From the NCBI GenBank assembly GCA_002309015.1, contig DBWM01000011.1, forward strand, positions 15,986 to 79,985: a DNA stretch of 64,000 nt, read 5' to 3'. The notes under the pieces are model-generated. The model saw nothing but the letters and a program-made list of their open reading frames with translations. It did no database searches and was not told the origin of the DNA. A program made the translations under genes and the position numbers. This stretch comes from Myxococcales bacterium UBA1238 (lineage in GTDB: Bacteria; Myxococcota_A; Bradymonadia; UBA7976; UBA1532). Shown here in pieces: positions 14,240-48,260 of the stretch; positions within the stretch are counted from its first letter, which is position 1; each line of letters begins with the position of its first letter.

Positions 14240-14273
14240 TGCTTGCATTTTGAGAGCATTCTTTGCTTTAAAG

Positions 14274-14322: not shown

Positions 14323-14384
14323 GCGCCCAGGAATCGATAACTGACAAAAATACTGAATGAAATCAACCGGTTGTAAGGAGCGAT

Positions 14385-18867: not shown

Positions 18868-18991
18868 CGCGTCACCCCTCCATTCGCATCGCCGTAAATT
18901 GTTAGACGACTCTTAAACTGTAAACGAAGCTGCGCGCGGTTGCCAGCAAAAAGGAGAGAGCGGGATCAGGCCTCACGCCATCAGCGATCGC

Positions 18992-20365: not shown

Positions 20366-20595
20366 AAAAAATCTCCATAAAAAGTCATTCTGTACGCTAT
20401 ATCCGCGTCGTGGTTTCGATCAAAGTGCAAAATATATACCCACGAAAAAAGTAGGTATAAGAGAGCGATTGAAAACCGGAGGACCGCTTTTGGGGAAGCG
20501 GCTTTTTCAGCTCTCATGGCATGGTGAGGAGAATCTGGAGAAAACGAAAGCGGAGAATGAGGGAGAAGCGCAAATGGGGGGGCGAGGAAATCGCT

Positions 20596-21131
20596 TTATT
20601 TCACCGTTTTCCCCAGCTGGTAGGCGGCCTCGGCGTAGGGGGTGCCTTTGATGCTTCCGGGCGTCCAGATTCCGGGGGCGATCACCTGACCCGCATCTTC
20701 CCAGCCCATATAGTCGATGAGCGTGCGATAATGGGCCACCATCGCATCGGCATCTTTTTTGGCCTGATTGGCGTAAGCCATCAGAAATGCAGCTTTTTTC
20801 TTTACATGAAGCTGGCCGTTCAGCGCATAGAAGCGATCGATCACGGTTTTTAACTGCGCCGAGAAACCAAAATCATACATGGGGGAACAGAAGACGATCA
20901 GATCGGCGCTGACGAGTTCAGATCGCAGGCTCTTTGTGAAGTCATCGTTGAAGATGCAGGGCCCGTTCATCCCACAATGATTGCAGCCCACGCAGGGCCG
21001 AACGTCGCTTTCGGCCGCATTGAAGCGAAGAATTCATACCCCGCTTCCTTTGCACCCTTCTCGAACCGATCGGCCATGTGATTCATGTTGCCATTTTTGC
21101 GCGGGCTGCCCGTCAGTAAGACGATCTTCAT
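20596..21131 (-). pseudogene. flavodoxin-like NAD(P)H-dependent FMN reductase / iron-sulfur flavoprotein-like gene, interrupted by a -1 frameshift
   Basis: ATG at 21131 reads MKIVLLTGSPRKNGNMNHMADRFEKGAKEAGYE and then drifts to a stop. Another frame continues ILRFNAAESDVRPCVGCNHCGMNGPC... to 20596. Total length is 536 nt (not divisible by 3). The junction is at GGGTATGAATTCTTCGC (~21026-21042), consistent with GAAATT having become GAATT. Confidence 0.7.
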
Positions 21132-21264
21132 CTTTTTGTTTTCCCCCCTGGCAGCGTCCGTCGTCGTCCCCGATGCGAGTACCTAAGAGGGGGAAAGCAG
21201 CAGACTGCCCGCCAGCACAGCGGCTGAGGATTGAAGGAACTTACGGCGATCCATGGAGTTTTCC

Positions 21265-22014
21265 CTATTTTTGCCAGATATGGACGATCTCGCCGATATA
21301 CATGTAATGGACGTCGATGCCCCTCTGCTTGTACCAGTCGCGCTGTTCCTGCTGGAGCAGGCTGGAATCGAACTGGGCGGCGTAGATCTTTTTGCATTCA
21401 ATGGCAAAGTCGGACTCGGCGTAGCGCGGGTTTCCGAGCTCGGTCCATTCGGCGGTCAGATGGGCGCCCGCAACTTTATCTTCATCGCGCCCCGAAACGC
21501 GGCCCAGATAAGCCAGCTGATCGCGCATCGCCTCTGGAAAATGCGAAACCGTGAAGTGATCGTTCTTTTGAAGAAAGTCAAAGGTGTAACGACTGGGGCT
21601 GACATAGATGGTGACGACATCCTTGCTCCAAAGACGGCCGATGCTGCCCCAGCCGATCGTCATCAGGTTGGCTTTTTCCTTGTTGCCGGCGGCCACGACC
21701 ATCCAGTCTTCACCAAAAAGCCGCGCCATATTGTAAGGGATCTCGCGCGGCGCGATCTCTTTCCATGCCTTCGAATTCATCTTCCGATCCTCCTGGATTG
21801 CTTTGGCTCTTACGAGCGCAGCCCGCTCCTTCTCCTGGAGTGCTCTGGCTTTTACGAGCTCAGCCAGCTCCTCCTCCTGAATTGCTTTGGCTTTTACGAG
21901 CTCAGCCTGAGCCTCCTCCGACTTTGCAGAAGGCGCCTCCGTTTGGGACTCGCGGCTGCAGGCACAGAGGAACAGACAACCGAAGAGCCATGTGCGGGCA
22001 GATGCGTTCATCAT
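21265..22014 (-). CDS. flavin-reductase-like (FMN-binding split-barrel) protein with N-terminal lipoprotein signal and coiled repeat
   Basis: LFGCLFLCACS lipobox. 3x (E/A)LV(K/R)A(K/R)A(I/L)QE repeat. Then the flavin-reductase-like core (..MVVAAGNKEKANLMTIGWGSIG..VTIYVSPSRYT..). The alternative ATG at 21780 would give a cytoplasmic protein. Confidence 0.65.
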   Translation of the reverse strand: MMNASARTWLFGCLFLCACSRESQTEAPSAKSEEAQAELVKAKAIQEEELAELVKARALQEKERAALVRAKAIQEDRKMNSKAWKEIAPREIPYNMARLFGEDWMVVAAGNKEKANLMTIGWGSIGRLWSKDVVTIYVSPSRYTFDFLQKNDHFTVSHFPEAMRDQLAYLGRVSGRDEDKVAGAHLTAEWTELGNPRYAESDFAIECKKIYAAQFDSSLLQQEQRDWYKQRGIDVHYMYIGEIVHIWQK

Positions 22015-22038: not shown

Positions 22039-22854
22039 CTACTTCTTGGCCTTGGCGTTTTCGTCCTTTGAAGACTCCGCCGGCGGCTCTTTTTCTCCCT
22101 CTTTCTTGGCCTTCTTCTTCGTTTGGATCTTATGGAAGCAGGATTCGACGATCTTGTAATCGCTGTTGTAGGCCATGAGCAGTCGCGCGTAGGCGTGATT
22201 GTAGAAGTTGCGCGCTTTTTCGGCGACCTGATTCAAAGCGATCGTGGCGTCATTCTCTGCGCTGATGGCCGCCGCCCGCTTTTCGATCTGATCGCGAATC
22301 TTTTGCATATTGGCTTCGAGATCTGGAATATGATTCCTGAAGAGTTCATAATCCGCATCAGCCGCAATCTTATCGCGCAAACGGTGGATGTAATCGATGT
22401 GATGCGAATAACCGTGATTGGGATTCGACAGCTCCGTCGGGCTCTTAGGGAAAATCTTCAGATAAATCGGATCCTTGGAATCCCCCTGAAGATGCGCCCT
22501 GACCTCGCGCGCAATCTGAAGGACGAGCTTGTGGCTGTCGGTCACCACCTGTTTTAACTCCGCATTGAGCCCCACCCGGTTGGCATTGGCCATCATGAGC
22601 GCATCCTGCGCCTGATGCAGCTGCTGCAGATGATCGCCGCATTCAACCATCAACTGCTTTGGCCCATTCGGCCCCTCAGGATCCTCCGGCGCAGGCTTCC
22701 GCATCAACTGCACGCGCAAAAACAAAATCGAGTTATAAGTGGTCGTATGAGGCGTCTTATCGGTCAGCTGATTCATCCATTCTCTCCCCAGGGCAGCCCC
22801 CGCCACCCCAAAAGGCCAGTCTCCATCACCGGCCATATTCACATTTTTGAGCAT
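22039..22854 (-). CDS. hypothetical helical protein with Lys-rich tail
   Basis: Long ORF with protein-like composition, ending 24 nt upstream of the next gene start. No motif recognised. Confidence 0.55.
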   Translation of the reverse strand: MLKNVNMAGDGDWPFGVAGAALGREWMNQLTDKTPHTTTYNSILFLRVQLMRKPAPEDPEGPNGPKQLMVECGDHLQQLHQAQDALMMANANRVGLNAELKQVVTDSHKLVLQIAREVRAHLQGDSKDPIYLKIFPKSPTELSNPNHGYSHHIDYIHRLRDKIAADADYELFRNHIPDLEANMQKIRDQIEKRAAAISAENDATIALNQVAEKARNFYNHAYARLLMAYNSDYKIVESCFHKIQTKKKAKKEGEKEPPAESSKDENAKAKK

Positions 22855-23075
22855 AGCAGATTCGAGGATTCAAAAAAGAGTTTTTTTTCATGGATGGGCG
22901 ATTTTTTTGAGGGAGGGTGTATGCAGAAGTGATACTTTGAAGGCGTCGTGAGAGCATGGGGAAGGCGATTGAACGATTGAATTCCGTGGGCTTGTGGATC
23001 GATGGCGGTGTTTAACGAGTGAATGGGGGTTATGGAGAGCTGGGCGATGGAATTCAGGGCGTGAATGCCTGTGGC

Positions 23076-23190
23076 GGAAGTTCGGGATGGGGAGTTAACG
23101 CGTGAATGGAGGATGGGGAAGTTCGGGATGGGGAGTTAATGGATGAAGGAAAATGGTGGGGGAGTTCGGGAGATGGGGAGCAGTGGATAG
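23076..23190. repeat. ~41-44-bp tandem repeats (different sequence family)
   Basis: GGAAGTTCGGGATGGGGAGTTAA.. starts at 23076, 23117 and 23161. Confidence 0.6.
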
Positions 23191-23232
23191 AGCGAGCTTA
23201 AACGAATCAGCTGAGCGGATTCGTGAGGTTTT

Positions 23233-23895
23233 TTAATCGTCTTCTTTTGGGGGAATGAGCATCAGACTGGAATCGAACTCTCCCTTTTGCTTGAAATATT
23301 GGATCATATCGATAAACGGATTGAGTTCCTCACCGTCTTCATTGAGATACCATTCAATATACTCCGCATCGCCTTTTGAACCGTAAAAACAGGCTTCAAA
23401 GACCGCTTTTCGGGCCTGGCGCAGGCGATAGGCGTTTAAATTTAAGAGTTCGACGGTATAGCGGCCTTGTTTGGTCTTTCCTTCAATCTGACCATCAGAG
23501 AAAAATCGAAAATGCCTTTCGCAGCCTTCCTGCAAAGGTGAGACGAAGAGCGCTTCATCAAATCTGTTTTGTTTGCTGTGGCCGCAGGTGCTTTGCGCGC
23601 CTTTGGTTTCGCAGGAAGCGACGATGTTTTCATAGCACATCGACTTTTGAGGGTATCGCTCTTTGGGGCAGATATGCTCGTTATGAGCATGATCGGGTGA
23701 AATTCTCTGGCAGCAGTAAGCGCAGAGAAATTTCTGTTCATCAACCAGGCTTTCGCGCAGTTTTCTTGCGATGTTTCGGCCTTCCTCTGTTTGGACGAGC
23801 GCCTGATAAGTGAGGTTGCGACGCTTTTGAAGGTATTGGCTCCAGAACTCAGGCGTGTTCGTTTTCGTGATTCTTCTCATCTTTCCTCTTTGCAT
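23233..23895 (-). CDS. ptuB: HNH endonuclease, Septu PtuB-like (TIGR02646-type)
   Basis: CAYCCQRISPDHAHNEHICPKERYP..NIVASCE....CGHSKQNRF matches the HNH layout of PtuB/retron-associated HNH proteins. It lies immediately downstream of the ATPase and overlaps it. The alternative start at 23880 shortens the overlap. Confidence 0.8.
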   Translation of the reverse strand: MQRGKMRRITKTNTPEFWSQYLQKRRNLTYQALVQTEEGRNIARKLRESLVDEQKFLCAYCCQRISPDHAHNEHICPKERYPQKSMCYENIVASCETKGAQSTCGHSKQNRFDEALFVSPLQEGCERHFRFFSDGQIEGKTKQGRYTVELLNLNAYRLRQARKAVFEACFYGSKGDAEYIEWYLNEDGEELNPFIDMIQYFKQKGEFDSSLMLIPPKEDD

Positions 23896-25165
23896 AGTTG
23901 AGTCTCATCGAGAGCCTGAGGGCATCTGCATGCTGAGCGCCTGTCGTTTCGGAAATCTTTGAGAGCAGCCTTTGCGCGAGATCATACTGCCGATCTTCGA
24001 TCGCCAGCTCTGTATCATGTAAAAGCTTTTCAAAATCCTGGTTTCGGCAGGATGTGTTCATAAACTCTTCAAGGATATAGTTCGCATCATATCCGTTCAT
24101 CTGAGGCAGTTCATCGACGGTGATCGTCTCATCGTGAATCAGTTTTCGGATGCGACAGGGCTGATCGATCTCACCGAGCACCTGCGGAGAATGCGTTGAG
24201 AGCATAAACTGGCAATGGGGAAAGATGGAAAGCAGGTTAGGGATCACTCTCCGCTGCCATTTGGGATGGAGATGGAGTTCGATCTCATCGATGAGAATGA
24301 CGCCTTCTCCTTCGAGCGGTGAGGTGAGCCCGGGATTGGCGATCGCGAGCCTTAAAGCGATGTCACCGACGAGTGCGAGCAAACATTTTTCGCCATCAGA
24401 GAGCTGGCCAAAGCCAATCTTTTGCGCGTTCTTTTCAATACAGATTTTAAACGGCTTCTTCTCTACATGGAGATCTTTAAATTCAGGAATCATCCTTTGA
24501 ATCGCTTCCTGAACCGCTTCATGCTGCCTTCTGTGCCATTTTAAGAACGGATCGGGGTAATCGATCGGCAAAAAATCCTGATCGGCTTCACATTCCCGGA
24601 AGCGTCCAATAAAAGTTCTGAAATCGAGCGCGCTCGAAAGCGCGTTGTCATACGCATTGAAGGGCGAAGTCGCCGGGCGGTAGGTGCGAATGCGTTCCGG
24701 AATCTCTAAGATGGCGCGGTTGGTGGGGTAATAGGCGACGAGAGGCAATCGCGCCTGCATGATCGAGTCGTCATGAGAGATTTCTTCAAAGAATTGCTTG
24801 AAGGGCTCCATGTTTTCGACATGTTCGAGAACGCCATCCGTATTTTCGTAGAATGAATAGCCTTCGCCTCGTTCTGCGTAGATATATTCAGAGATAAAGA
24901 AGCCTTTTTTCCCATCGAACTGATGCTGAAGGATGATTTCGCCCTCATACTGCATCTGTCCGGCGCGAATGTTCTCATTTTTGCCCGAAAGCTCAAACTC
25001 TGAGTCGAAATAACGGCATTTTGAAAGCATGAGCGCCAAAAAATCGAGAATCGTCGATTTGCCTGTGCCGTTATCTCCGATGAAAACATTGAGCCTCGGA
25101 TCAAAATCGAGTTCGAGCTTCTCAATCCCTCTGAAATCCCGGATATTTAATCGTTTGACGCGCAT
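23849..25165 (-). CDS. ptuA: ABC/AAA_15-21-type ATPase, Septu PtuA-like
   Basis: MRVKRLNIRDFRGIEKLELDF. Walker A GDNGTGKST. Signature LSDGEK. Walker B VILIDEIELHLHP. H-loop STHSPQV. Confidence 0.8.
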   Translation of the reverse strand: MRVKRLNIRDFRGIEKLELDFDPRLNVFIGDNGTGKSTILDFLALMLSKCRYFDSEFELSGKNENIRAGQMQYEGEIILQHQFDGKKGFFISEYIYAERGEGYSFYENTDGVLEHVENMEPFKQFFEEISHDDSIMQARLPLVAYYPTNRAILEIPERIRTYRPATSPFNAYDNALSSALDFRTFIGRFRECEADQDFLPIDYPDPFLKWHRRQHEAVQEAIQRMIPEFKDLHVEKKPFKICIEKNAQKIGFGQLSDGEKCLLALVGDIALRLAIANPGLTSPLEGEGVILIDEIELHLHPKWQRRVIPNLLSIFPHCQFMLSTHSPQVLGEIDQPCRIRKLIHDETITVDELPQMNGYDANYILEEFMNTSCRNQDFEKLLHDTELAIEDRQYDLAQRLLSKISETTGAQHADALRLSMRLNYAKRKDEKNHENEHA

Positions 25166-25286
25166 GAGCGGACTCCACCAATCAAAGCGATCAAAGTTTT
25201 AGCAGTTCTGCTGAAACGATGAAACTTATTTTGAAAATATGCGGCTTTTTGGCTTTGAACGATCGTGTTTTTGGGGATGATTTGAC

Positions 25287-26723
25287 TTAGTTGCAAGAAC
25301 CAAGCTGGTTTGAATCGATGTAATCAAAAATGAGAGGCGCTGTTATATCCCTCATAGGCCATCTGATTCTTTCCCGAGGGTGCTCGTTAAAGTATTGTTT
25401 AATTTGTTCAAGCTTATGAATAAACTCTTCCTCTCTTTTATATCCAAAGATCTGCGCAATCTCCTTTAAATGCTCTTTAGAACTTAATCTTTGAGAGAAC
25501 GTTTTCATTATCTGATAATATTTATCGTAACTACATGTGATCGGAATCCAAGGTTTTGATTTGTCAATCCCATTTTGAAAGACCGATGCTTGATAGCAAA
25601 GTGCATCAGCCAAAACGAATTGATCTTGCGTACAAATTCTTTTGTTGAGCGTCTGAACCCAATCATAGGCTATCCCTGAAAAATAGTTCTGCTGATCACG
25701 TTGCTTGATGGCTTCTTCAAGCTTTGAATTGTCATGATAAAATATACAAAAACTTTTATTCTGTTGCGTCATATATATAGTATTTATGGAGTATGTTTTA
25801 CTAAAAATATTTGACAGCTCTTTAAATCTCTCTTCTTTGTGATAAATTGCAATCGTATAAATAAAAAGCTCATGCAGGCGTGTTTTAAGTAACTCTGATT
25901 TGATTGTAGACAAAGGGTTGAGCACATTGAAGATTTCTTCATACGTCTTGGTAATTAATTTCTCAGAACCAGGGACGATATGTACATATTGAAGCAACTC
26001 AAGAAACTGATCCCTGATAAGTTGAGTCTGCTGATAAAGGGACAGGATCTGATCAGATTCGAGTTCTTTTGATGAATCGTCTGAAATCGACTGAATGAAT
26101 TTCTCTTTCACTTCTGCCAAATATTCTTTGAATTTATTTTCTCTTAGAAGATCAGATCCCTCTTTTTTTAAAGAAGCATATTTTCTTTTGAAGAGCTCAT
26201 TGGTGTCTTTAGGGTTGTCGACCCATAAGGGTTTGGTGCCCAGTTCCGGTTCTACAATCTCTGGCTGGCCATAAAGATGCCTTACAAGTTTTTGATAATT
26301 TTCATCTCCATCTTCGAAGTCGCATAGATCGATATAATTTCGTGATTTTAAATAGGCAGGGAGTGGATCTATCCCATCTTCATTGCGTTCAAATATGATT
26401 GGAATAAATTTTGCTTGATCAGCTTTTTTGTAAACTTCAGCAGATATAATCTGCGTTTCACTACCGACGCCTCCAGATCTTTCATTTGCTTTTTTGGAAT
26501 AGATCGGATCCAACAGGATTAAAACGTTGGTGACAGATGGGTCTGTCACACTTTTTTCCATAAAAGCATAGATATCCTGCCCAGGCCTGAGAGACCATTG
26601 GTCTAGCAAGACATTGACGCCATCGCTTTTTAAAAAACACGCCAGTTTAAGGACCTTATTTTTATAGTCCTCGTCTTTCCATGCGTAGGAAATAAAAACT
26701 TTTGGGTGTTCGATCTTTTCCAT
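25287..26723 (-). CDS. SEFIR/TIR-domain protein with uncharacterised ~330-aa C-terminal domain
   Basis: KVFISYAWKDEDYKNKVLKLACFLKSDGVNVLLDQWSLRPGQDI..KANERSGGVGSETQII..KFIPIIFE..LPAYLKSRNYIDL is a typical bacterial SEFIR/TIR N-terminal domain. ATG at 26723 has AAGGAA 9 nt upstream and lies 17 nt after the hsdS stop. The gene is strongly AT-rich. Confidence 0.85.
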   Translation of the reverse strand: MEKIEHPKVFISYAWKDEDYKNKVLKLACFLKSDGVNVLLDQWSLRPGQDIYAFMEKSVTDPSVTNVLILLDPIYSKKANERSGGVGSETQIISAEVYKKADQAKFIPIIFERNEDGIDPLPAYLKSRNYIDLCDFEDGDENYQKLVRHLYGQPEIVEPELGTKPLWVDNPKDTNELFKRKYASLKKEGSDLLRENKFKEYLAEVKEKFIQSISDDSSKELESDQILSLYQQTQLIRDQFLELLQYVHIVPGSEKLITKTYEEIFNVLNPLSTIKSELLKTRLHELFIYTIAIYHKEERFKELSNIFSKTYSINTIYMTQQNKSFCIFYHDNSKLEEAIKQRDQQNYFSGIAYDWVQTLNKRICTQDQFVLADALCYQASVFQNGIDKSKPWIPITCSYDKYYQIMKTFSQRLSSKEHLKEIAQIFGYKREEEFIHKLEQIKQYFNEHPRERIRWPMRDITAPLIFDYIDSNQLGSCN

Positions 26724-26740
26724 TGCTGATTTCCTTTCGA

Positions 26741-28201
26741 TCAGTTCAATTTCAGTCTCTCGCACAGCGGAAGCAACTCCTCAATCTTTGCCACAATGCG
26801 CTTCTGCTCTGCAAGGGGCGGGAGAGGAATCAGAAATTCTGAGAGCTTACCAACTGAGAGAAAATTGAATGTAGTTTTGCCTGCTTTTTGGAGGATGGTT
26901 GCTTTTAATGTTTGAACAAACATGTAAATATAAAGAGGAAATATTACAGGCTTATATATTTCTTTTACGACAAGTGCATTGAATTGTTGATTAGTTGTAA
27001 GTGGTATTTTTGTATATGCGTATTCTCCAACTGAAGCAGTGCAGCATAGTAAGACTGTTTCAGGTGGTACGATTCTCTCTGTATTCTTTGATAATGCTTT
27101 ACGTGTAATAAATTTTTCTGTTTTTGATATAAATCTTCCCTGGCGATGCACATCGTCAATTGTAAACCACGGAATATCTCCATTCTCCCAAAATTCTGGA
27201 TTGCTTTTGAGTGGAGTAAATCCATTAATTATATTGAACACTTCTCCCAGCCGTACCCAAATCCACCCCTCCGGGATTTCGAATGGGATCTCCTCCTCGC
27301 TGATCTCTGGCAGTGCCTTTTCCTTCTTAATCTTCCCAGCCCGAATCAAGGCTTGTTTCTCGCGTTGAATCTCGCGATACAACTCCTCTGCGGTTCCTTC
27401 TTCAGCGCGTTGCTCGACAAGCTTCCCCTGAATCGCAAGTTGCAGAATGGATTTTTGCAAATCTCCCGGAAAACGCCTGTTGAATGCTTCAAGCCGAGTC
27501 CAGGCTTTTTCATAGCGATCGATCAGCGGCAGAATTTCCTCAATCTTCGCGACAATGCGTTTTTGCTCAGCAAGTGGGGGAAGAGGAATCAGAAAATGTT
27601 TGAGCTTTTCTGCTTTAATTCCTTTTGCGGTAGTTCCTGTGCAATTATCTGATAATTGTCCTTGAAATGAGGGAGAGAGTATAAAGTACATCAGCAAAGT
27701 GAGATCTATAGTGTTCTCCTCATATTGTTGAAATGTAATTATCCTTTGGCCACATGAGCTAATTTCTAAATCACATAGTGCAGCGTTTCCCATTGGAGCT
27801 TCGGTTGTAAAAAGTAGATCGCCCTTTTTGGTAATTCCTCTATTTTTTCTGCCCTCATATTCGGACAAAGAAATGTATTCCTTACGAGTGTAGTCCATAT
27901 ACCCATTCTTAATATTTGAAGCGGTAATAAGAAAAACTCCTTCAGATACTTTGGTAGGAGTTTTTCCTCTATAATCAATGAAGTTGACAATCTCATTTAG
28001 CCTCATCATCTTCCAAGAACTTGGAACCTCAAAATCCATTGAAGAATAATCTAATTCATGCTTACATGGGCCAAGTTTAGTAATATATGGCGTTAGCTTT
28101 AAGTGCAGCTCTTCTGCTGTCCCTTCTTCAGCGCGCTGTTCGACGAGTTTGCCCTGGATGGCGAGTTGGAGGATGCTGTTTTTCAAATCTTTGGGTGTCA
28201 T
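26741..28201 (-). CDS. hsdS: type I restriction-modification specificity subunit
   Basis: Two target-recognition domains are separated by duplicated conserved helices: ILQLAIQGKLVEQRAEEGTAEEL x2 and LIPLPPLAEQKRIVAKIEE(I/L)LPL x2. ATGA overlap with fic. Confidence 0.9.
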   Translation of the reverse strand: MTPKDLKNSILQLAIQGKLVEQRAEEGTAEELHLKLTPYITKLGPCKHELDYSSMDFEVPSSWKMMRLNEIVNFIDYRGKTPTKVSEGVFLITASNIKNGYMDYTRKEYISLSEYEGRKNRGITKKGDLLFTTEAPMGNAALCDLEISSCGQRIITFQQYEENTIDLTLLMYFILSPSFQGQLSDNCTGTTAKGIKAEKLKHFLIPLPPLAEQKRIVAKIEEILPLIDRYEKAWTRLEAFNRRFPGDLQKSILQLAIQGKLVEQRAEEGTAEELYREIQREKQALIRAGKIKKEKALPEISEEEIPFEIPEGWIWVRLGEVFNIINGFTPLKSNPEFWENGDIPWFTIDDVHRQGRFISKTEKFITRKALSKNTERIVPPETVLLCCTASVGEYAYTKIPLTTNQQFNALVVKEIYKPVIFPLYIYMFVQTLKATILQKAGKTTFNFLSVGKLSEFLIPLPPLAEQKRIVAKIEELLPLCERLKLN

Positions 28202-28836
28202 CGCGGTTGTTCGGGGGAAGAGAAGGCATCCTGGACGATGCGTTCGAGGTAGCCTTTTTTGGAGAGATCGCCGAGATCGTGAAAGACGGCGTTGTAGGCG
28301 ACGAGGGCGGCGCGCATGTAGACGCTGTTTTCTTCAAAGATTTCGCGGCGAATGGCGAGCTGCTGATCTTCTGCAAACTGGCAGCAAAAGGTGATGACCG
28401 TGCGGGTATTGCCTTCGCGAAAGGGATGGATCTTCCATAACGAAGCCATGTCGAAGCAAAAATGCTGTGCAAATTCGGTGGGTTGCATTTGATGCCAGGA
28501 TCTTTGGGTCATCTGTTGAAGGCAGGAGGTGACCTGCTCTGTGATCGTGTTGTGATCGGCATATTCGACCGAAAGACCGCCCAGGACGGGTTCTTCTTTT
28601 TCGATGTTGATGCGGCGGAATTCCCCGGCCCAGTCGTAGAGATCCTGAAAGAGATAGCGGTGCAGGCGTTTTAAGTGAGAGAGGTCATAACAGCCCGTCA
28701 AGGGATTTTCGGTCAGTTCCCGCAGGCGCAGAGAGGTGTAATCGGCTTCGATTTTGCGAATGAAATCAGGATCTTTGATGGATAATCGGTTCTTTAGAGT
28801 TCGTGTGTTGGGGTATACATAAGGATCCTGCATCAC
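28198..28836 (-). CDS. fic: Fic/Fido-domain protein (class I, VbhT-like toxin)
   Basis: Fic motif HPFREGNTRT. ~210 aa. ATGA overlaps with both the upstream antitoxin-like gene and the downstream hsdS. Confidence 0.9.
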   Translation of the reverse strand: MMQDPYVYPNTRTLKNRLSIKDPDFIRKIEADYTSLRLRELTENPLTGCYDLSHLKRLHRYLFQDLYDWAGEFRRINIEKEEPVLGGLSVEYADHNTITEQVTSCLQQMTQRSWHQMQPTEFAQHFCFDMASLWKIHPFREGNTRTVITFCCQFAEDQQLAIRREIFEENSVYMRAALVAYNAVFHDLGDLSKKGYLERIVQDAFSSPEQPR

Positions 28837-29036
28837 TGTGGGACCTTCATTTTGTATTTCTTATCCAATAAAGCTTTGATGTCGCTGGTGGTGAGCTTGC
28901 CGTCGATTTCCAGTTGGACGTAGCGTTTGAATTCATCGGAGGGCTCCAATCCATCGATGCGGATCATACCGAGGGCGTATTTCCATGCGCGTTCTTTGCC
29001 CGCGCGGTCGATGGGGTTGGATATGTAGTCGTTCAT
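28833..29036 (-). CDS. VbhA-like Fic antitoxin
   Basis: 67 aa. ..ALGMIRIDGLEPSDEFKRYVQLEIDGKLTTSDI.. resembles the VbhA-family (S/T)xxxEG-LEPS helix. Positioned directly upstream of fic. Confidence 0.75.
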   Translation of the reverse strand: MNDYISNPIDRAGKERAWKYALGMIRIDGLEPSDEFKRYVQLEIDGKLTTSDIKALLDKKYKMKVPQ

Positions 29037-29124
29037 GCATGCTCCTCAAAAAGCCGATCAAAGCCCGCAGAATGCCACAAAAAAGGCCAAAAATCCAGCA
29101 AGAAGGGCGAGTTGCAGCTGGGGT

Positions 29125-30153
29125 TTATTCCCTGGAATGCGAAGGTTTTTGGGCAGTGAATGCCTTTAGAGCTTTGTCAAAATCCGATTCGATGGGTTGG
29201 GTGCGGTTGAAAATATCGTATTCGCGGGCGGCTTTCTCCTGGGCGGATTTTTGAGAGACGCGACCGTTGTCTTTTAAAATCTGATATTGTCTAAACTCCA
29301 AAAAGGCGTTCACGCTCTGTTCAAGTTCAGCCATGGTAAAGGTATTCTCGCGTTCAATCAGATCTTCGATATAATCAAAATAGCCTGTGACGGCGCGCTC
29401 AAGCTGGCGGATTTGGCTTTCGTTGAGATAGTTCTTTGCGATCATCACATTGGATTTCAAAATTCGGCCATCGGGCGCATTTTTCCATGTGGTGAGCCCC
29501 ATGTGTTCTTTGGTGTGATCGGCGTTTTGATAGACGATTTCGGCGGCGGTATGTTGGGTGATGGCATAGTGAAATTTGTTTTGAATGGTGGCGTAAAAAT
29601 GGCTGGCGAGTTCGGAATCCCGTGTATAGTCGATGCTGCATTCGGCAAAAATGTCGGTGATTTGCTGCCAGATGCGCCGTTCACTGGCGCGGATAGAGCG
29701 GACGCGCTCGAGGAGTTCCCGGAAGTAATCTTTACCAAAAGCCGTCTTGCCCTGCTTTAAACGGTCGTCATCGAGGACAAATCCTTTTTTGATAAAGTCT
29801 TTGAGGATGCCGGTGGCCCAAATTCGAAACTGGGTGGCTTTTTTGGAATTGACGCGGTAGCCCACAGAAATGATCGCGTCGAGGTTATAAAACTCCGCGT
29901 TTCTTTTGACTTTTCGCGTGCCTTCGTTTTGAACAGTTTCCATTTTGGAAACAGTTGCGTCGCGGCAGAGCTCTCCTTCGTCGTAGATATTGGCCAGATG
30001 TTTGGAAATCGCCGGCACCTGAACCCCAAAAAGCTCCGCCATCGCTTTTTGAGTCAGCCAGACGGTTTCATCCCGGATGTAAGCGCTGATGCTGACTGCG
30101 CCATCTTCTGAGCGATAAAGCATCAGATTCATTTGCTTTTCAAAATTGCTCAT
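29125..30153 (-). CDS. rhuM: RhuM-family protein
   Basis: ..VWLTQKAMAELFGVQVPAISKHLANIYDEGEL..YNLDAIISVGYRVNSKKATQFRIWAT..L is characteristic of RhuM proteins, which are commonly inserted in type I R-M operons. Confidence 0.85.
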   Translation of the reverse strand: MSNFEKQMNLMLYRSEDGAVSISAYIRDETVWLTQKAMAELFGVQVPAISKHLANIYDEGELCRDATVSKMETVQNEGTRKVKRNAEFYNLDAIISVGYRVNSKKATQFRIWATGILKDFIKKGFVLDDDRLKQGKTAFGKDYFRELLERVRSIRASERRIWQQITDIFAECSIDYTRDSELASHFYATIQNKFHYAITQHTAAEIVYQNADHTKEHMGLTTWKNAPDGRILKSNVMIAKNYLNESQIRQLERAVTGYFDYIEDLIERENTFTMAELEQSVNAFLEFRQYQILKDNGRVSQKSAQEKAAREYDIFNRTQPIESDFDKALKAFTAQKPSHSRE

Positions 30154-30166
30154 CGGTCCTCTTCCA

Positions 30167-31672
30167 TCATCCTTCGCGTCCCCCGAGTTTCCCTAGGATT
30201 TCGTCCAAAACGCGGTCGATTTCGGCGTTGAGGGAGGCGCGTTCTTCCTGGTAGCGCTGAATGAGGTCCATCGGCGCCAGAATTTCTTCTTCTTCGTGAG
30301 GGAAGCCGCATTGATCGAGGTTGTACCCCAAATCTCCGGAGAGCTCGGCGGCGGTGTAGCGTTTGGCTTTGGGGAAGCCGTCGAGCGAGATCTCTTCGCG
30401 GCGGTGCCACCATTCGATGACAGGGGCAAAATGCTCGGGCTTCATCGGCTTTGTTTTTGAGAAATGCTTATAGCCTTCGGGCATATCGAGGCGATAGAAC
30501 CAGGTGTTTTGGGTGGGGCCGGTGCGGTCAAAGAACAAGATGTTGGTCGTGATCGAGGTATAGGGCGAAAAGACGCTGCCGGGCAGGCGGATGATCGTAT
30601 GAAGGTTAAATTCAGAGAGGAGTTTTTTCTTGAGATTGATCTTGGCGTTGTCTGTCCCAAAGAGAAAGCCGTCAGGCAAAATGACAGCGGCGCGGCCGTT
30701 CGGTTTTAAGCGATACATGATGACGGCCATGAAGAGATCGGCGGTTTCAGAGCTTGCGAGATCAGAGGGGAAATGATTTTTGACGTCTGATTTTTCGCTG
30801 CCACCGTAGGGTGGATTCATCAAAATGACATCGAACTGATCGCGCTCGTTGTAATCGAGGACGTCAGAGAGCAGGCTGTTTTGATGGAAAATCTGCGGGT
30901 GATCGACGTCGTGCAGGAGCATGTTGGTGATGCAAAGCATGTATGGGAATTGCTTCTTTTCGAAGCCATAAATCGAGCAGCCAAAGGCTTCGCGGTCTTT
31001 TGCGGTTTTGAGCGAAGGTTCGAGGGCTTTTAGCCAGCTCGTCAAAAAGCCGCCGGTGCCGCAGGCAAAATCGGCCATCTTTTCGCCCACTTTGGGTTCG
31101 ATCATCTTCGCCATAAAATCGGTGACTGCGCGCGGTGTATAGAATTCCCCCGATGATCCGGCGCTTTGGAGCTCCTTTAAGATCGTCTCATAGATTTCAC
31201 CGAATGCATGGCTCTCCTCTGTGTCATTTAAGTCGAGTTCGTCAATGATATTCAGGAGTTGGCGCATGAGTACGCCATCTTTCATGTAGTTGTTGGCGTC
31301 TGCAAACACGCTTTTCACGATCGCTTTTTGAATGGGCGTCTCGCGATCGACGGGCAGATTTTTTAAGGTCGGAAACAGGTGGTTGTTGACGAACTCTAAG
31401 AGCGCTTCTCCGGTTTTGGCCTTGCCGTCGCTGTTCTGAGCCCAGTTTTTCCATTGGCATTCTTCGGGGATGATCGATTGATAAGAATTTTGATAAGAAA
31501 AGAGATCATCCCCGCTCAGATCAGCCATCATCCAGTTTTGCTCCTGGCTATCGTAGACCTTTAAAAAGAGCATCCAGGCGATCTGTTCGATGCGTTGCGC
31601 GTCTCCGTTGATGCCGGCGTCGTTGCGCATGACGTCGCGGACGCGCTTTACAAAAGAACCTAACTGACTCAT
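30167..31672 (-). CDS. hsdM: type I R-M N6-adenine DNA methyltransferase subunit
   Basis: HsdM N-terminal region. AdoMet motif DFACGTGGFL. Catalytic MNPPYGG (NPPY). Confidence 0.95.
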   Translation of the reverse strand: MSQLGSFVKRVRDVMRNDAGINGDAQRIEQIAWMLFLKVYDSQEQNWMMADLSGDDLFSYQNSYQSIIPEECQWKNWAQNSDGKAKTGEALLEFVNNHLFPTLKNLPVDRETPIQKAIVKSVFADANNYMKDGVLMRQLLNIIDELDLNDTEESHAFGEIYETILKELQSAGSSGEFYTPRAVTDFMAKMIEPKVGEKMADFACGTGGFLTSWLKALEPSLKTAKDREAFGCSIYGFEKKQFPYMLCITNMLLHDVDHPQIFHQNSLLSDVLDYNERDQFDVILMNPPYGGSEKSDVKNHFPSDLASSETADLFMAVIMYRLKPNGRAAVILPDGFLFGTDNAKINLKKKLLSEFNLHTIIRLPGSVFSPYTSITTNILFFDRTGPTQNTWFYRLDMPEGYKHFSKTKPMKPEHFAPVIEWWHRREEISLDGFPKAKRYTAAELSGDLGYNLDQCGFPHEEEEILAPMDLIQRYQEERASLNAEIDRVLDEILGKLGGREG

Positions 31673-33999
31673 TCAAACACCTCGTCGTAGAGAGCCGCTT
31701 CGAGCTCTGAAATCGCCTGTTTATATCCCGCAGGGCCGTTAAAATAGCCCGCAATTTTGGCGGGTTTACCATATTTTTGAAACTCTGGAAGCTGAAGCAC
31801 CTTGCCCGAGCGCAATTCGCCTGCGCCGTGATCGGCATATTGATCGAGCAGGAGTTCCAGAATGCTGCGGGCTTCGCCTTTGTATTTGTTTAAAAAATCG
31901 CGCTTTTTCACATGATTTGCGCGCTCTTTGCGCGTGAGCGGCTTTTGGTCGTAGGCGATGTGACAAACAAAGTCGAAGTCATCCACATCTTCAAGCTGCT
32001 GGTCTCTTTTTAACTGATCCAGATCGATGCCCTGAAGCCTGAGCATTTCCTTGATGCGACCGGAGTTCGGCGATTTACGCCATTCGCGGATAAAGGCACT
32101 GAGAGAGGCATAATGCCCAAGCAGGCTCGCTTTGGTGTAATCGACGATGTCTTCCTGACGAAGGAGCTTGCCCTCTGTGTCATAAACCGAGACCACACGG
32201 TGGATCACGTAAACCCTGCAGCCGTCTGCGGTCACATAGGGCTTGTAGCGGGGCTCTTTTTCCTCTTCATCGCCGGCATCGTTTTCATCGGACTCCGTTT
32301 CAGACGCTTGCTTTTCTTTCACTTCAAACTGATCGTCGATTTCGATCGGTCCATCCCATTCAGGATCCACAAAAAGCCGCGTGACGCCTCGAAAATCCAT
32401 CACGGTAAACGAAAGCTTGCCGTCAGCTTCCCGAATCCGCGTCCCGCGCCCGATGATCTGTTTAAACTCGGTCATCGAATTCAGGCATTCATCGAGGACG
32501 ATCAGCCTGGTCATCTTGCAATCGGCCCCGGTCGAAAGGAGCTTTGAGGTTGTGACGATGACGGGATATTTCGCGGCGACCGAAATGAAATAGTCGAGTT
32601 TGCCCTTGCCATATTCGTCGCTGCCGGTGATGCGCACCACATAATCCTCGTGCTTGTGCATCATGTCTTCGTTGCATCGGGCGAGCGCATCTCGCATGCG
32701 GAGGGCTGCTTCCTCGGTGGGGCAAAAGACGATCGTCTTCGCCATGCGGTCGGTCTGCTTCAAAAAATCGGTGATCTTCTGCGCAACTTCGCGCGTGCGA
32801 TCCTCGAGGACGATGTTGTAGTCGTAATCGCTGTTGTTATAGATGCGGTCTTCGATTTCGTGCCCGTTGGCGTCGAGTTGTCCCTTGGTGGGCCGCCATT
32901 CGTCGCCGACGTTGGTTTTAAAGCTGATCACCTTAAAGGGCGCCAAAAAGCCGTCATCGATGCCGTTGTTGAGGCTGTAGCTGTAGATGGGCTCCCCAAA
33001 ATAGTTGATGTTTGAAGTGTATCTGGTCTCCTTGGGCGTCGCGGTCATGCCGATTTGAGTCGCACCCGAAAAATATTCGAGGATTTGGCGCCAGGTGCTG
33101 TCCTCTTTGGCCGATCCGCGATGGCATTCGTCGACGATGATGAGGTCAAAGAAGTCGGGTCTGAAATATTTCTTGTAATGCTCCTCGCCGGATTCGCCCA
33201 TGAGCTGCTGATAGAGCGCAAAATAGACCTGGTACGAAGTGAGTTCGGAACGCTTATCCTTTTGAAAATTGATTTTGTGGATGACCTTTTCGAGCGGCGC
33301 AAAATCCTGCTGGATCGACTGATCGACCAGAATATTCCGATCGGCTAAGTATAGGATTTTCTGTTTGATTTCGCTTTTGAGCAGGCGATAGACGATTTGA
33401 AACGCCGTATAGGTTTTGCCGGTCCCCGTCGCCATCACCAAAAGCAAACGCTGCTGTCCCCGCGCGATCGCATCTACGGTGCGGTTGATCGCGATGCGCT
33501 GATAATAACGCGGGGGATATGTGCTTTGGCTGCTGTAGTAGGGCTGCGCGCGAAGCTTCTGCTGCAATTCCGTGGGATTCTCTGCAGAGTTGATGCGCCC
33601 CTGGAGCTCTTCGGGTGTTGGAAACTGATCGAGCGGAATCTCGCGCTCCTTGCCGGTCAAAAAGTCATGTTCCACAAAGCATTCGCCGTTCGAGCTGTAA
33701 GCAAAGTACAGATCGAGCATTTTCGCGTAAGCGATCGCCTGCTGCAGGCCCTCTGAGGGAGCATACCGGTTGGATTTGGCTTCAACCACCGCCACAGAAT
33801 AGTTCGGACGCAAAAAGAGTAAGTAATCCGCGCGCTTAGGCGCCGATCGGCTCGCCAGGTTGCCCCGCAGATTCACCTTTCCGTCGGTCAGCCGCGCCTC
33901 CATTTGGATTTGAAGACGCGGATCCCACGATCGCTCGATTGCGGGCGTAATATAAAGCCGTTTGATGTCTTCTTCGCTGTGCAGGCTCAAATCACTCAT
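31669..33999 (-). CDS. hsdR: type I restriction endonuclease R subunit (EcoAI/EcoEI-like, type IB-like)
   Basis: Helicase motif I MATGTGKT and motif II DECHRGS. C-terminal EcoEI-R-like tail (..LLDQYADHGAGEL..LQLPEFQKYG..). ATG at 33999 (MSDLSLHSEEDIKRLYITPAIE) is preferred. ATGA overlap with hsdM. Confidence 0.95.
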   Translation of the reverse strand: MSDLSLHSEEDIKRLYITPAIERSWDPRLQIQMEARLTDGKVNLRGNLASRSAPKRADYLLFLRPNYSVAVVEAKSNRYAPSEGLQQAIAYAKMLDLYFAYSSNGECFVEHDFLTGKEREIPLDQFPTPEELQGRINSAENPTELQQKLRAQPYYSSQSTYPPRYYQRIAINRTVDAIARGQQRLLLVMATGTGKTYTAFQIVYRLLKSEIKQKILYLADRNILVDQSIQQDFAPLEKVIHKINFQKDKRSELTSYQVYFALYQQLMGESGEEHYKKYFRPDFFDLIIVDECHRGSAKEDSTWRQILEYFSGATQIGMTATPKETRYTSNINYFGEPIYSYSLNNGIDDGFLAPFKVISFKTNVGDEWRPTKGQLDANGHEIEDRIYNNSDYDYNIVLEDRTREVAQKITDFLKQTDRMAKTIVFCPTEEAALRMRDALARCNEDMMHKHEDYVVRITGSDEYGKGKLDYFISVAAKYPVIVTTSKLLSTGADCKMTRLIVLDECLNSMTEFKQIIGRGTRIREADGKLSFTVMDFRGVTRLFVDPEWDGPIEIDDQFEVKEKQASETESDENDAGDEEEKEPRYKPYVTADGCRVYVIHRVVSVYDTEGKLLRQEDIVDYTKASLLGHYASLSAFIREWRKSPNSGRIKEMLRLQGIDLDQLKRDQQLEDVDDFDFVCHIAYDQKPLTRKERANHVKKRDFLNKYKGEARSILELLLDQYADHGAGELRSGKVLQLPEFQKYGKPAKIAGYFNGPAGYKQAISELEAALYDEVFE

Positions 34000-34143
34000 C
34001 AAAAGCGCCTCTCCGGATGCCTGAATCGAGCATGCCCGATTCAAAGGGGGCAATCAAGAAGGGGTGTTTCCAATCCCCCAGCCGTCACCTCACTCCATCT
34101 CGAACCTCTTGCCAAAGCTCTCAGATCCGTTTACTGCATAGCT

Positions 34144-34818
34144 ATGACGAGGATTTTGCTGATCGACGACGAGCCGGCCATCACTGAAAGTCTTGAATAT
34201 GCGCTGTTGCGCGAGGGCTTTGAGGCGCAGTCTGTGGCCAATCTGGCGGAAGCGGATCTTGCGCTCTCGAACCATCATTTTGATTTGGCAATTCTGGACT
34301 TAGGGCTTCCCGACGGTTACGGTCTGGATTGGCTTGGGCGGCTGCGTCAGACGTCCAATGTGCCGGTGATCATCCTTTCGAGTCACGACGATGCGCGCGA
34401 GCATGTGGCGGGCCTTGAGATGGGGGCCGACGACTACGTGGACAAGCCTTTTTCGCTGCGCGAGATGGTGGCGAGGGTGCGCGCGGTGCTGCGCCGTGTG
34501 GGAGAGCCGCCGGTTTCAAATGAGTCTCAGCTTCGGATCGATCATGATGCGCGCCAGGCGTTTGCGGGATCGCAGTTGTTGCATCTGTCGCGCACGGAGT
34601 TCGATTTGCTGGCGACGTTGTGGTCTCATGCGGGCCATGTGCTCGATCGCGAATCGCTGTTGTCGCTGGTTTGGGGCCCCGACATCGCGGTGACCGAGCG
34701 GACCATCGACGTGCATGTGAAGTCGCTGCGCAAAAAACTGGCGGCGGCGGGCATGAAGGGCGACGTGATCGAGACCGTGCGCGGCGTGGGCTATCGATGC
34801 ATGCGAGGCGCTGATTGA
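34144..34818 (+). CDS. OmpR-family response regulator
   Basis: MTRILLIDDEP...DLAILDLGLPDG receiver domain. Winged-helix C-terminus (..TIDVHVKSLRKKL..IETVRGVGYR). The longer listed ORF (from 33904) overlaps hsdR and is rejected. Confidence 0.9.
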   Translation: MTRILLIDDEPAITESLEYALLREGFEAQSVANLAEADLALSNHHFDLAILDLGLPDGYGLDWLGRLRQTSNVPVIILSSHDDAREHVAGLEMGADDYVDKPFSLREMVARVRAVLRRVGEPPVSNESQLRIDHDARQAFAGSQLLHLSRTEFDLLATLWSHAGHVLDRESLLSLVWGPDIAVTERTIDVHVKSLRKKLAAAGMKGDVIETVRGVGYRCMRGAD

Positions 34819-35954
34819 CTGAAGATTTTGTGGTCGCATCGGGCGAGGCCGTCCTGCTTTTGGGCGGTCTGCTGGTCGTTTTCGTACTCTTATGGATCGC
34901 GAGCCGTCTCTGTTATGCGGTGCGCCACGGCTTTTCAATCCGTTTTCTGCTGTTTCTGGCGATCCTGGGCACGACCCTGCTGACCACCGGCCTGATGGGC
35001 ATGTGGGCGGTCAATCGCGTGCAGGCTTTGGGGCTCGAACATCGGAATGCGTTCGTCGATCTGGTGCGCGGATTCGGTCCTAAGTCTGCGTTTTTGTTCT
35101 GTATTCTGCTGGTCTCCGCGTTGGCGGCCGCCTTGCTTCTGGGGCGCAGTCTGGCCCGTCCCATCGAGAGTCTCGCGCATTCTGCAGAGGAGATCGCTGC
35201 CGGAAAACGTCACGCCGTCCTGCCGCCTCCCGTCGGTCGCGAGGTTCGCCGCCTGACCCAGGCGTTTGAATCGATGCGCCGCTCCCTCGAGGATCGCCAT
35301 CAAATCGAGCAGTTTGTTGCAGATTTATCTCACGAGCTCAAGAATCCGGTTTCGGCCATCCGCGCTTCGACCGAGGCCCTGATGGAGGGCGCCGCGAGCG
35401 AACCCCAGATGCGGGAACGCTTTTTGTCGCGGATCGACGAGGCTTCTGCGCGTCTGGAGCTGCTGTTGCAGGATTTGCTGGCGCTGGCGCGTCTGGAGGC
35501 GCGGGGGATAGAGCCTGACGGCGAGATGGTGCAGCTGGATGAACTGGCGCGCGATGCGATCAAAAACTGTTCCGCAACGATTGAATCAAAAAGGATTGAT
35601 TTTAAAGAAGATTTTGAGCACGTGCGGATCCGTGGTGATGCGCGCTGGCTGCGGCGGGCCATCGACAATTTGCTCTCCAATGCCCTGCGTTACAGTCCCG
35701 AGGGGGGGAGGATCGATTGCCGCTTGTCTCTGGATCGCGAGGAGGCGGTTTTTCGGATTCAGGATCAGGGACCTGGCGTGCATCCGGCGTTAAAGCCAAA
35801 GATTTTTGAGCGCTTTGTGACCGATCGCGCCCATGCGGGGGGAACGGGGCTGGGGCTTGCGATCGTGCGTAGCGTAGCCGAGCATCACGGCGGATCGGCG
35901 AGGCTCATCGATCAGGAAAAGGGCGCCTGCTTTGAGATGCGTTTGCGCGCATAA
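34815..35954 (+). CDS. sensor histidine kinase (2 TM, HAMP, HisKA, HATPase_c)
   Basis: H-box FVADLSHELKNPVSAI. N-box LLSNALRYSP. G-boxes QDQGPGV and GTGLGLAIV. TTG start overlaps the response-regulator stop. Confidence 0.9.
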   Translation: MTEDFVVASGEAVLLLGGLLVVFVLLWIASRLCYAVRHGFSIRFLLFLAILGTTLLTTGLMGMWAVNRVQALGLEHRNAFVDLVRGFGPKSAFLFCILLVSALAAALLLGRSLARPIESLAHSAEEIAAGKRHAVLPPPVGREVRRLTQAFESMRRSLEDRHQIEQFVADLSHELKNPVSAIRASTEALMEGAASEPQMRERFLSRIDEASARLELLLQDLLALARLEARGIEPDGEMVQLDELARDAIKNCSATIESKRIDFKEDFEHVRIRGDARWLRRAIDNLLSNALRYSPEGGRIDCRLSLDREEAVFRIQDQGPGVHPALKPKIFERFVTDRAHAGGTGLGLAIVRSVAEHHGGSARLIDQEKGACFEMRLRA

Positions 35955-48231: not shown

Positions 48232-48260
48232 TCACTGAATAAGGATGATAAGGAGAGATC

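Follow-up and report, generated by a model that had tools for sequence, protein, structure and literature searches.

A probable chromosomal defence hotspot around a type IB restriction-modification operon in a Myxococcales bacterium

We analyzed a 64,000-nucleotide stretch of the genome of Myxococcales bacterium UBA1238 (assembly GCA_002309015.1, contig DBWM01000011.1, positions 15,986 to 79,985; the whole stretch is called the window hereafter), in which nine genes predicted to act in defence lie side by side. We consider it likely that this locus represents a defence hotspot of the chromosome, organised around a type IB restriction-modification (R-M) operon, with a conserved core, hsdR-hsdM-rhuM-vbhA-fic-hsdS (26741-33999, minus strand), and an exchangeable slot downstream of it (23190..26745, strand not assigned), occupied here by a bSEFIR gene and a Septu pair. 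An earlier note on this DNA had proposed that the nine genes form one composite island of layered immunity and are not together by chance. The island itself and its non-random adjacency find support in the recurrent embedding of RhuM and Fic in R-M operons, and layered defence is plausible. On the contrary, an obligate coupling of all nine genes is unsupported, because the last three genes can be swapped as cargo and relatives of the embedded modules occur autonomously.

The conserved core and the exchangeable slot

The list of open reading frames (ORFs) holds nine ORFs between 23233 and 34053, all of them on the minus strand, so the co-orientation and positions described earlier are borne out. 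The gene names proposed then also agree with Pfam, PADLOC and NCBIfam, with the refinement that the gene called TIR encodes a SEFIR/TIR protein that PADLOC assigns to bSEFIR. Neither E. coli genomes nor PLSDB plasmids gave a megablast match to the island.

The core of the locus is a type I R-M gene set. The restriction subunit HsdR (31669..33999, 776 aa) matches Pfam ResIII (2.6e-45) and EcoEI_R_C (3.9e-32) and scores 1049.7 bits against NF046051, the NCBIfam equivalog for EcoAI/FtnUII, whose cut-off is 550; it is therefore a type IB enzyme. It carries the motifs D58...E73-x-K75, GTGKT and DECH. HsdM (30167..31672, 501 aa), the N6-adenine methyltransferase subunit, matches Pfam N6_Mtase (1.3e-63) together with HsdM_N and retains the motifs DFACGTGGF and NPPY, while the specificity subunit HsdS (26741..28201, 486 aa) matches Methylase_S (1.2e-45) with two such domains and duplicated conserved segments. 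All three subunits have both Pfam and PADLOC matches. The locus thus holds the features of a type IB system, namely three subunits, the EcoAI equivalog, a nuclease with an SF2 helicase, AdoMet/NPPY motifs and two target-recognition domains (TRDs). The catalytic motifs indicate that the R-M gene set is intact, and both methylation and restriction activity are predicted.

Within this core, the two TRDs of hsdS are AT-rich and vary between strains (TRD1, about 27602-28096; TRD2, about 26846-27346; both on the minus strand). TRD1 is replaced in the related contig L089 (276-829) and both TRDs are replaced in another relative, L123 (4451-5700). The conserved hsdS segments persist at 83-91% identity while the TRDs are exchanged, in strains that elsewhere are 96.7-98.8% identical. 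The alignments therefore point to HsdS changing its specificity by TRD replacement, a predicted switching of R-M specificity within the lineage.

The slot downstream of hsdS carries three genes in the window. The first (25287..26723, 478 aa, with the start given by the gene callers and the sequence) encodes a single protein with an N-terminal SEFIR/TIR domain (Pfam TIR_2 6.7e-19, SEFIR 2.5e-15) that matches the PADLOC bSEFIR model (3.5e-85, model positions 31-370 of 412). It resembles the bSEFIR proteins of Millman et al. 2022 (bioRxiv 10.1101/2022.05.11.491447) in combining this domain with a long C-terminal region, but it is only about 31% identical to its Bacillus plasmid homologues, and its gene sits 17 nt past the hsdS stop. 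The two others form a Septu system, an ABC-type ATPase gene followed by an overlapping HNH nuclease gene: PtuA (23849..25165, 438 aa; PADLOC 2.8e-115) has the Walker A motif GDNGTGKS and the Walker B motif VILIDE, and PtuB (23233..23880, 215 aa; PADLOC 3.7e-46) matches the retron-system putative HNH endonuclease subfamily TIGR02646 of NCBIfam (67.9 bits, cut-off 52.15). Both proteins score below the NCBIfam retron-Ec78 PtuA and PtuB equivalog cut-offs. We found neither a reverse transcriptase nor a retron RNA near ptuAB, and the pair is therefore a plain type I Septu and not the retron-linked form.

We then compared the locus between relatives. Exact-protein look-ups of HsdM, of the histidine kinase at the right border and of ORF271 at the left border showed that the island is at the same site in every near-identical contig, with a window identity of 100% for L081 and L088, 98.4% for L083 and, across the R-M core, 98.8% for L089. 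The contig L123, found by a search for RhuM homologues, is 96.7% identical in nucleotides over window positions 28143-32583. It holds hsdR (the contig starts inside the gene), hsdM and the genes for RhuM, VbhA, Fic and HsdS; gene order and overlaps match those of the window, protein identities are 98% for HsdM, 98.5% for VbhA, 97% for Fic and 91% for RhuM, and its flanks are 92.7-95% identical in nucleotides. After hsdS, GajA and GajB of a Gabija system (PADLOC 6.7e-129 and 4.4e-68) replace bSEFIR, PtuA and PtuB. Homology resumes at about position 23188 of the window, and the repeat block, ORF271 and the flavin reductase gene follow at 92.7%. The breakpoints fall in the last hsdS codons (about 26745-26750) and at about 23190, 43 nt beyond the ptuB stop. 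In both arrangements the first cargo gene has its own ribosome-binding site and starts close behind the hsdS stop, 17 nt in the window and 19 nt in L123.

The same replacement was seen in the metagenome GCA_016648615.1, where a contig reads [partial ORF]-GajA-GajB-ORF271, with ORF271 at 99% identity; Gabija was called there from the Pfam domain content in the gene list, and in L123 by PADLOC. As this metagenome is also the source of L089 (98.8% core identity), the swap is seen in a source that holds a contig only about 1% divergent from the window. As in a core-flanked hotspot, one site therefore holds bSEFIR and Septu in the window, L081 and L088, and Gabija in L123 and in the GCA_016648615.1 contig. 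These alignments indicate that whole defence systems are exchanged at the slot between closely related strains, and that the core is inherited together with the flanking backbone.

The insertion boundaries that the earlier note had hoped to read from close relatives could be fixed for the slot, whose edges are set by the Gabija arrangement of L123. For the whole island no such reading was obtained: exact-protein look-ups and a metagenome scan with the histidine kinase found no island-free relative or empty site, the scan returning only an identical contig and distant kinases (at most 28% identity).

This comparison also bears on the idea that the nine genes are one obligate multi-component system, or one mobile element from a single acquisition. 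Their common orientation, their short junctions and the lack of any internal terminator-like site in our scans would agree with it. We nevertheless regard this idea as very improbable, considering that contigs from two further metagenome sources have Gabija in place of bSEFIR and Septu next to the same core and flanks, that GC content differs sharply between bSEFIR (36.8%), Septu (48%) and hsdRM (52%), that every module has autonomous relatives elsewhere, and that no recombinase, tRNA or border repeats were found at the locus.

We also looked at what follows hsdS in more distant operons. For 49 relatives with at least 3 kb past hsdS, Pfam was run on the first two ORFs; this census was more useful than the PADLOC one, which was dominated by redundant specificity-subunit models. 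It returned tyrosine recombinases with extra hsdS copies (shufflons), as well as three Gabija-like pairs, two TIR proteins, Abi_alpha and McrBC. We considered that Gabija might be co-inherited with the R-M operon and rejected it: the Gabija pairs of L021, L022 and L067 share only 27-34% identity with the L123 pair and are therefore independent arrivals.

Such a slot has known counterparts. Core-flanked defence hotspots are described in P. aeruginosa (cDHS; PMC10250203) and in the defence-island repertoire of E. coli (PMC10121019), and the locus shares with them a fixed site between conserved genes, a different cargo per strain and the lack of mobility genes. It differs from them in that the 3' end of hsdS itself bounds the slot on one side, and in that only two cargo states are seen in a lineage that is barely sampled.

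The embedded RhuM and VbhA-like/Fic genes

Between hsdM and hsdS, the core contains two toxin-type modules, both matching phage-defence candidate (PDC) models of PADLOC. The first is rhuM (29125..30153, minus strand, 342 aa), a single-gene candidate defence or toxin gene whose product matches Pfam Virulence_RhuM (1e-104) and PDC-S05 (4.7e-156). The second consists of a VbhA-like ORF (28833..29036, minus strand, 67 aa), which encodes a putative Fic inhibitor or antitoxin, and of fic (28198..28836, minus strand), which encodes a class I-like Fic protein of 211-212 aa with matches to Pfam Fic (1e-14) and PDC-S04 (1.9e-52).

A PDB sequence search with RhuM found nothing, and its AlphaFold2 model is poor (pLDDT 57.5, pTM 0.37), although its N-terminal part, modelled with moderate confidence, resembles a strand-plus-helix DNA-binding module. 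A patch within rhuM (29884..30010, minus strand, about aa 54-87) is hypervariable and appears replaced: it differs from L123 at 45 positions per 100 nt, the rate elsewhere being 0-9. On this low-confidence model the patch lies on a beta-hairpin of the N-terminal domain and may be a specificity determinant. In E. coli, a PDC-S05 (RhuM) gene from another organism, assayed by itself as a candidate system, reduced the plating of T7 and T5 by a factor of about 1000 (bioRxiv 10.1101/2024.09.26.614923).

The Fic module resembles the class I Fic toxin-antitoxin systems VbhT/VbhA and FicT/FicA. Fic proteins are classed by where their inhibitory helix comes from (PMC12249575), and as in class I the Fic fold is accompanied by a small, separately encoded partner directly upstream, whose ORF overlaps that of the roughly 210-aa Fic protein. 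The best PDB match of Fic is VbhT (E = 1.9e-24). The best match of the partner is VbhA, although weak (E = 0.045), and its Pfam VbhA score of 23.7 bits is just under the gathering cut-off of 25.9. Homologues of the 67-aa ORF are annotated by NCBI as VbhA-family antitoxins beside Fic. The pair probably works like a Fic toxin with its inhibitor.

The motifs of both proteins depart from those of class I systems. The Fic motif reads HPFREGNTRTV where the canonical one is HxFx(D/E)GNGRxxR; Thr replaces the second Gly, and Val the final Arg. The form H.FREGNTR..[V/I], with a hydrophobic residue instead of the canonical Arg, is found in 119 of the 120 Fic homologues examined (P0001-P0120), and the subfamily counts more than 2000 proteins at E <= 1e-20. 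In the partner, the segment G-M-I-R-I-D-G aligns to the antitoxin motif (S/T)xxxE(G/N) with Asp for Glu and without the Ser/Thr; homologous small partners read (L/I)DG, where VbhA has S-x-x-x-E-G. The GNTR-type motif and its conservation suggest that this Fic subfamily is a distinct catalytic variety, whose activity may differ from AMPylation of gyrase and topoisomerase IV. A literature search found no experimental test of PDC-S04.

Embedding of this kind is known. R-M operons combined with PrrC-like, Doc/Fic and RhuM-like genes led Anantharaman et al. 2013 to propose a "multilevel defence program" (PMC3710099). Payne et al. 2024 formalised "guilt by embedding" for Hma, BREX, DISARM and type I R-M, and made the untested PDC candidates searchable in PADLOC (bioRxiv 10.1101/2024.01.29.577857). 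TgvAB of Vibrio cholerae VPI-2 is an autonomous system located in a type I operon, with complementary specificity (PMC11411939). As with PrrC in EcoprrI, TgvAB and the PDC-S04/S05 genes, defence or toxin-type genes lie here between hsd genes, co-oriented and tightly spaced; the locus differs in that RhuM and VbhA-like/Fic stand side by side between hsdM and hsdS. It also has no ABC-ATPase/HEPN anticodon nuclease of the PrrC type.

We asked where the closest relatives of the embedded genes are found. The closest Fic other than itself (66% identity) is that of L118, in a locus arranged hsdR-hsdM-small ORF-fic-hsdS, without RhuM, and the 4-nt overlap of fic and hsdS is conserved both there and in L123. 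At 57-64% identity, on the contrary, Fic homologues occur in free pairs with a small ORF, in a conjugative element with an adjoining integrase, in a polysaccharide locus and at other sites. On plasmids, the nearest homologues (39-43%) also form free VbhA-Fic pairs, which lie beside zeta toxin, ParM and relaxase genes. For RhuM, the closest plasmid homologues, on Bacteroides pBUN2 and Aeromonas pMC64A, lie within type I R-M operons, a 526-aa variant is embedded in a phase-variable hsd locus, and a Ligilactobacillus homologue is stand-alone.

We also examined 80 loci with HsdR relatives at 62-68% identity, mostly from gut Clostridia. Their default order is hsdR-hsdM-hsdS, and 26 of the 78 EcoAI-family loci that allowed hsdR and hsdM both to be located have inserted genes, encoding GmrSD-like proteins of about 850 aa, Mrr-type nucleases, a weakly PD-(D/E)XK-like protein of 170 aa or an uncharacterised gene pair. 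None of the 80 loci has RhuM or Fic between hsd genes; in L046, the opposite strand carries a RhuM homologue some 6 kb upstream of hsdR. The gene pair just mentioned, encoding proteins of 322 aa and about 200 aa, is located between hsdM and hsdS in L020 (16461-18025), L029 (13798-15374) and L069 (16440-18006). In L020 it has zero Pfam and PADLOC matches, and the pairs of L029 and L069 have the same sizes and position. By the logic of embedding, it is a candidate for an undescribed defence module.

These observations allow weighing two other ways of understanding the embedded genes. According to the first, following the PrrC/EcoprrI model, RhuM and/or VbhA-Fic would be held inactive by the HsdMS/HsdR complex or by VbhA and would fire once an anti-restriction protein of a phage has disabled the type I enzyme, so that embedding would express a physical or regulatory dependence on R-M. 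The site between hsdM and hsdS is indeed a PrrC-type site, and RhuM and Doc/Fic belong to the R-M-linked multilevel defence proposed in PMC3710099. The closest Fic (66%) and RhuM homologues are again embedded in R-M operons of unrelated hosts, the fic/hsdS overlap of 4 nt is kept in L118 and L123, and PDC-S04 and PDC-S05 became phage-defence candidates precisely through guilt by embedding (bioRxiv 10.1101/2024.01.29.577857). Such guarding remains unlikely in our opinion, since Fic homologues at 57-64% identity and some RhuM homologues have no R-M gene nearby and a single PDC-S05 gene protected E. coli (bioRxiv 10.1101/2024.09.26.614923). In addition, no RhuM or Fic is embedded in the HsdR relatives, and 26 of these hold GmrSD, Mrr, PD-(D/E)XK and other genes instead; the site therefore accepts anything.

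According to the second, VbhA-Fic and perhaps RhuM would have no anti-phage role and persist as addiction or selfish genes, either because their loss is lethal or by hitch-hiking on the expression of the operon. VbhA-Fic is mobile across very different contexts, with its nearest plasmid homologues beside stability and transfer genes (zeta toxin, ParM, relaxase) and others in conjugative elements beside an integrase, as such a role would predict. This explanation seems to us rather doubtful, and slightly more so than guarding, considering that embedding in R-M operons recurs for both the RhuM and Fic families across phyla and that the core is 97-98% identical in amino acids, without signs of decay. 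Moreover, phage protection is published for PDC-S05/RhuM and for SoFic, a class 2 Fic that is a validated anti-phage protein (PMC12249575, citing Millman 2022). We therefore favor RhuM and VbhA-like/Fic as modules of the hotspot core that would act in their own right.

Junctions, borders and surroundings of the island

The junctions of the nine genes were read from the sequence. As described earlier, hsdR/hsdM and fic/hsdS join by ATGA overlaps and the gaps are 13 nt (hsdM-rhuM), 88 nt (rhuM-vbhA), 17 nt (hsdS stop to bSEFIR) and 121 nt (bSEFIR-ptuA). Two other junctions need correction. The vbhA/fic junction, taken before as another ATGA, is GTGATG, that is, either a 4-nt overlap (GTGA) or a 1-nt overlap (TGATG). 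The ptuA/ptuB overlap is more likely 32 nt than 47 nt, as ATG 23880 is the likelier start of ptuB because it has a Shine-Dalgarno sequence, is the choice of the gene callers and coincides with the first aligned position of the PADLOC profile (residue 6 of the 220-aa ORF). The right end of the island, previously set at 34053, also moves: the hsdR ORF can be extended to a TTG at 34053, but the gene callers start it at 33999, which is the likely start.

Upstream of hsdR, a divergent intergenic region of 144 nt (34000..34143, strand not assigned) separates it from a response-regulator gene and presumably contains the promoter of the hsd operon, although a promoter scan of 34000-34143 found no sigma-70-like match on the minus strand. 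For the three internal gaps, the scan reported no terminator-like site, and RNA folding gave no structure more stable than shuffled sequence, with insignificant z-scores. As the scans returned match counts no higher than the shuffled expectation, these scans and folds neither support nor refute a single transcript.

The GC content is mosaic, as had been noted, with flanks at 53-60%, AT-rich TRDs at 36-38% between conserved hsdS regions at 49-51%, and an AT-rich bSEFIR gene (36.8%). PtuA is at 48.4% and PtuB at 46.8%. Both GC and GC3 differ sharply among the bSEFIR, Septu and hsdRM modules. The earlier description of hsdR and hsdM as host-like holds approximately, since at 52.8% and 51.5% they are near the host and slightly under it.

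The right border is host backbone and consists, as the earlier note had recognised, of a two-component system (34144..35954, plus strand): an OmpR-type response regulator (34144-34818; Pfam Response_reg/Trans_reg_C) followed by a histidine kinase (34815-35954; HAMP/HisKA/HATPase_c). The arrangement is identical in L083, L085 and L089.

The left border is formed by a conserved non-coding backbone (22855..23189, strand not assigned) upstream of ORF271. This region carries the tandem repeats described earlier, although their extent differs: instead of a block of about 42 bp units at 23076-23190, we found two 41-nt copies at 23059-23140, 83% identical, with degenerate partial copies over 23012-23171. 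The block is aligned and conserved in L123 and L125; it has no second occurrence in the window and, among the fetched loci, was found only in contigs of the same locus. We considered it as an att or recombination site and rejected this role, as it lies outside the exchanged segment and is conserved with both cargo variants.

ORF271 itself (22039..22854, minus strand, 271 aa) is a lineage-specific orphan with zero Pfam, PADLOC and NCBIfam matches, and it is kept beside both cargo types. It has a lysine-rich tail. A protein search found a single other cluster, at 50% identity, and this sole other homologue adjoins a type I hsdM-hsdS pair, an ADP-ribosylglycohydrolase and a HepT/MNT pair. ORF271 may therefore represent a defence-associated gene family. 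An extension of the island into its flanks was also considered and rejected, as ORF271, the flavin reductase and the right-flank ORFs have no PADLOC matches.

The earlier statement that the borders lack integrase, transposase and tRNA stood up to our searches. The ORFs of 10797-40957 have no integrase or transposase Pfam domain, the sole tRNA of the window (tRNA-Leu at 56771) is 22.7 kb from the island, and no direct or inverted repeat of at least 10 bp is common to both borders. The integrase, tRNA target and flanking repeats that mark an integrative element or a classical genomic island are accordingly absent from this locus.

Other features of the window were recorded. The flavin reductase gene (21265-22014) contains, in its N-terminal part, an in-frame 42-bp tandem repeat at 21788-21919 (3.1 copies, 85% matches), and its called length in related contigs is 249, 235 or 171 aa. 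Next to it, L123 lacks a segment of about 2.3 kb (18954-21257), which carries an FMN-reductase-like ORF together with a Na+/H+ antiporter gene, and joins 21258 directly to 18953; this represents a second indel near the island. A second block of lower GC (45-55%) extends over 47836-56690, beside tRNA-Leu(caa) at 56771-56855, and may be another acquired region. It encodes a 1270-aa protein with EGF, subtilase and FGE-sulfatase domains, a TPR-sulfotransferase, a DUF6976 protein, a deoxynucleoside kinase and, adjoining the tRNA, a 393-aa ORF without Pfam match. The window also contains three tandem paralogues of papain-like (C1) peptidases with a C-terminal proprotein-convertase P-domain (10797-15911), a cobalamin riboswitch (6119-6280, minus strand; 32.5 bits for a Rfam gathering score of 31.5) and an Nqr operon.

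A model for the locus and its meaning

The picture that we consider likely is one of autonomous systems collected by an R-M operon. In the core, rhuM, vbhA-fic and hsdS would be co-transcribed with the hsd operon, as we infer for rhuM and vbhA-fic because their junctions are tight or overlapping and hsdS is downstream of them, and fic and hsdS would be translationally coupled through their 4-nt overlap. Restriction of unmodified DNA would provide a first layer, followed by several independent abortive or nuclease systems. RhuM and VbhA-like/Fic would be self-contained second-line modules of the toxin type, acting by abortive infection or growth arrest, and not subunits of the R-M enzyme. In the slot, bSEFIR would act by NAD+ depletion and Septu by DNA cleavage through the HNH nuclease PtuB under control of the ATPase, as suggested by the characterised members of these families. 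Both are expected to be autonomous, gaining from co-localisation and possibly from hsd read-through without physical cooperation with the hsd complex; the cargo is probably read through from hsdS. Exchange of the cargo would proceed by homologous recombination, with the conserved hsdS 3' end and the region upstream of ORF271 as anchors, and without integrase or transposase.

Several points weigh against this picture. Every functional statement derives from family membership. The Foldseek search of the RhuM model against the PDB gave nothing below E = 0.001. The HPFREGNTRTV motif of Fic and the MIRIDG segment of its VbhA-like partner depart from the canonical catalytic and inhibitory motifs, and therefore neither AMPylation nor VbhA-style inhibition is established. 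The closest Fic and RhuM relatives themselves occur within R-M operons, as would equally be expected if their function depended on the R-M complex. Similarly, a cargo located 17-19 nt past hsdS without a promoter-like match could mean that its transcription depends on hsd, which would be a form of coupling. Finally, only two cargo states are seen in five or six contigs of the lineage, with no empty site among them, and the recombination mechanism is therefore deduced from the breakpoints alone.

A bolder possibility can be considered, to which we give little credence: the hsdS 3' end could be a docking point for promoter-less, read-through defence cassettes exchanged via the hsdS C-terminal region, and, linked with this, the embedded Fic, with its HxFREGNTRxx[V/I] active site and Asp-type VbhA-like partner, could be an enzyme of a new kind that watches over the R-M complex as PrrC does. 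If true, R-M operons of the EcoAI family would be recombinase-free "expression platforms" for other immune systems.

In conclusion, the literature already describes genes embedded in type I R-M operons, defence hotspots without mobility genes and layered immunity, and the locus leaves current concepts unchanged. The value of the locus lies in the breakpoints at hsdS between Gabija and SEFIR with Septu, in the double embedding of RhuM and Fic, and in the non-canonical Fic subfamily. The cargo swap is seen in contigs whose shared flanks differ by a few percent, with breakpoints precise to a few nucleotides, and the model predicts read-through transcription of the cargo from the hsd promoter. The hotspot that we consider likely here would exemplify how a defence island can be assembled without mobile-element machinery, by a vertically kept R-M operon that gathers nested toxin-type genes.

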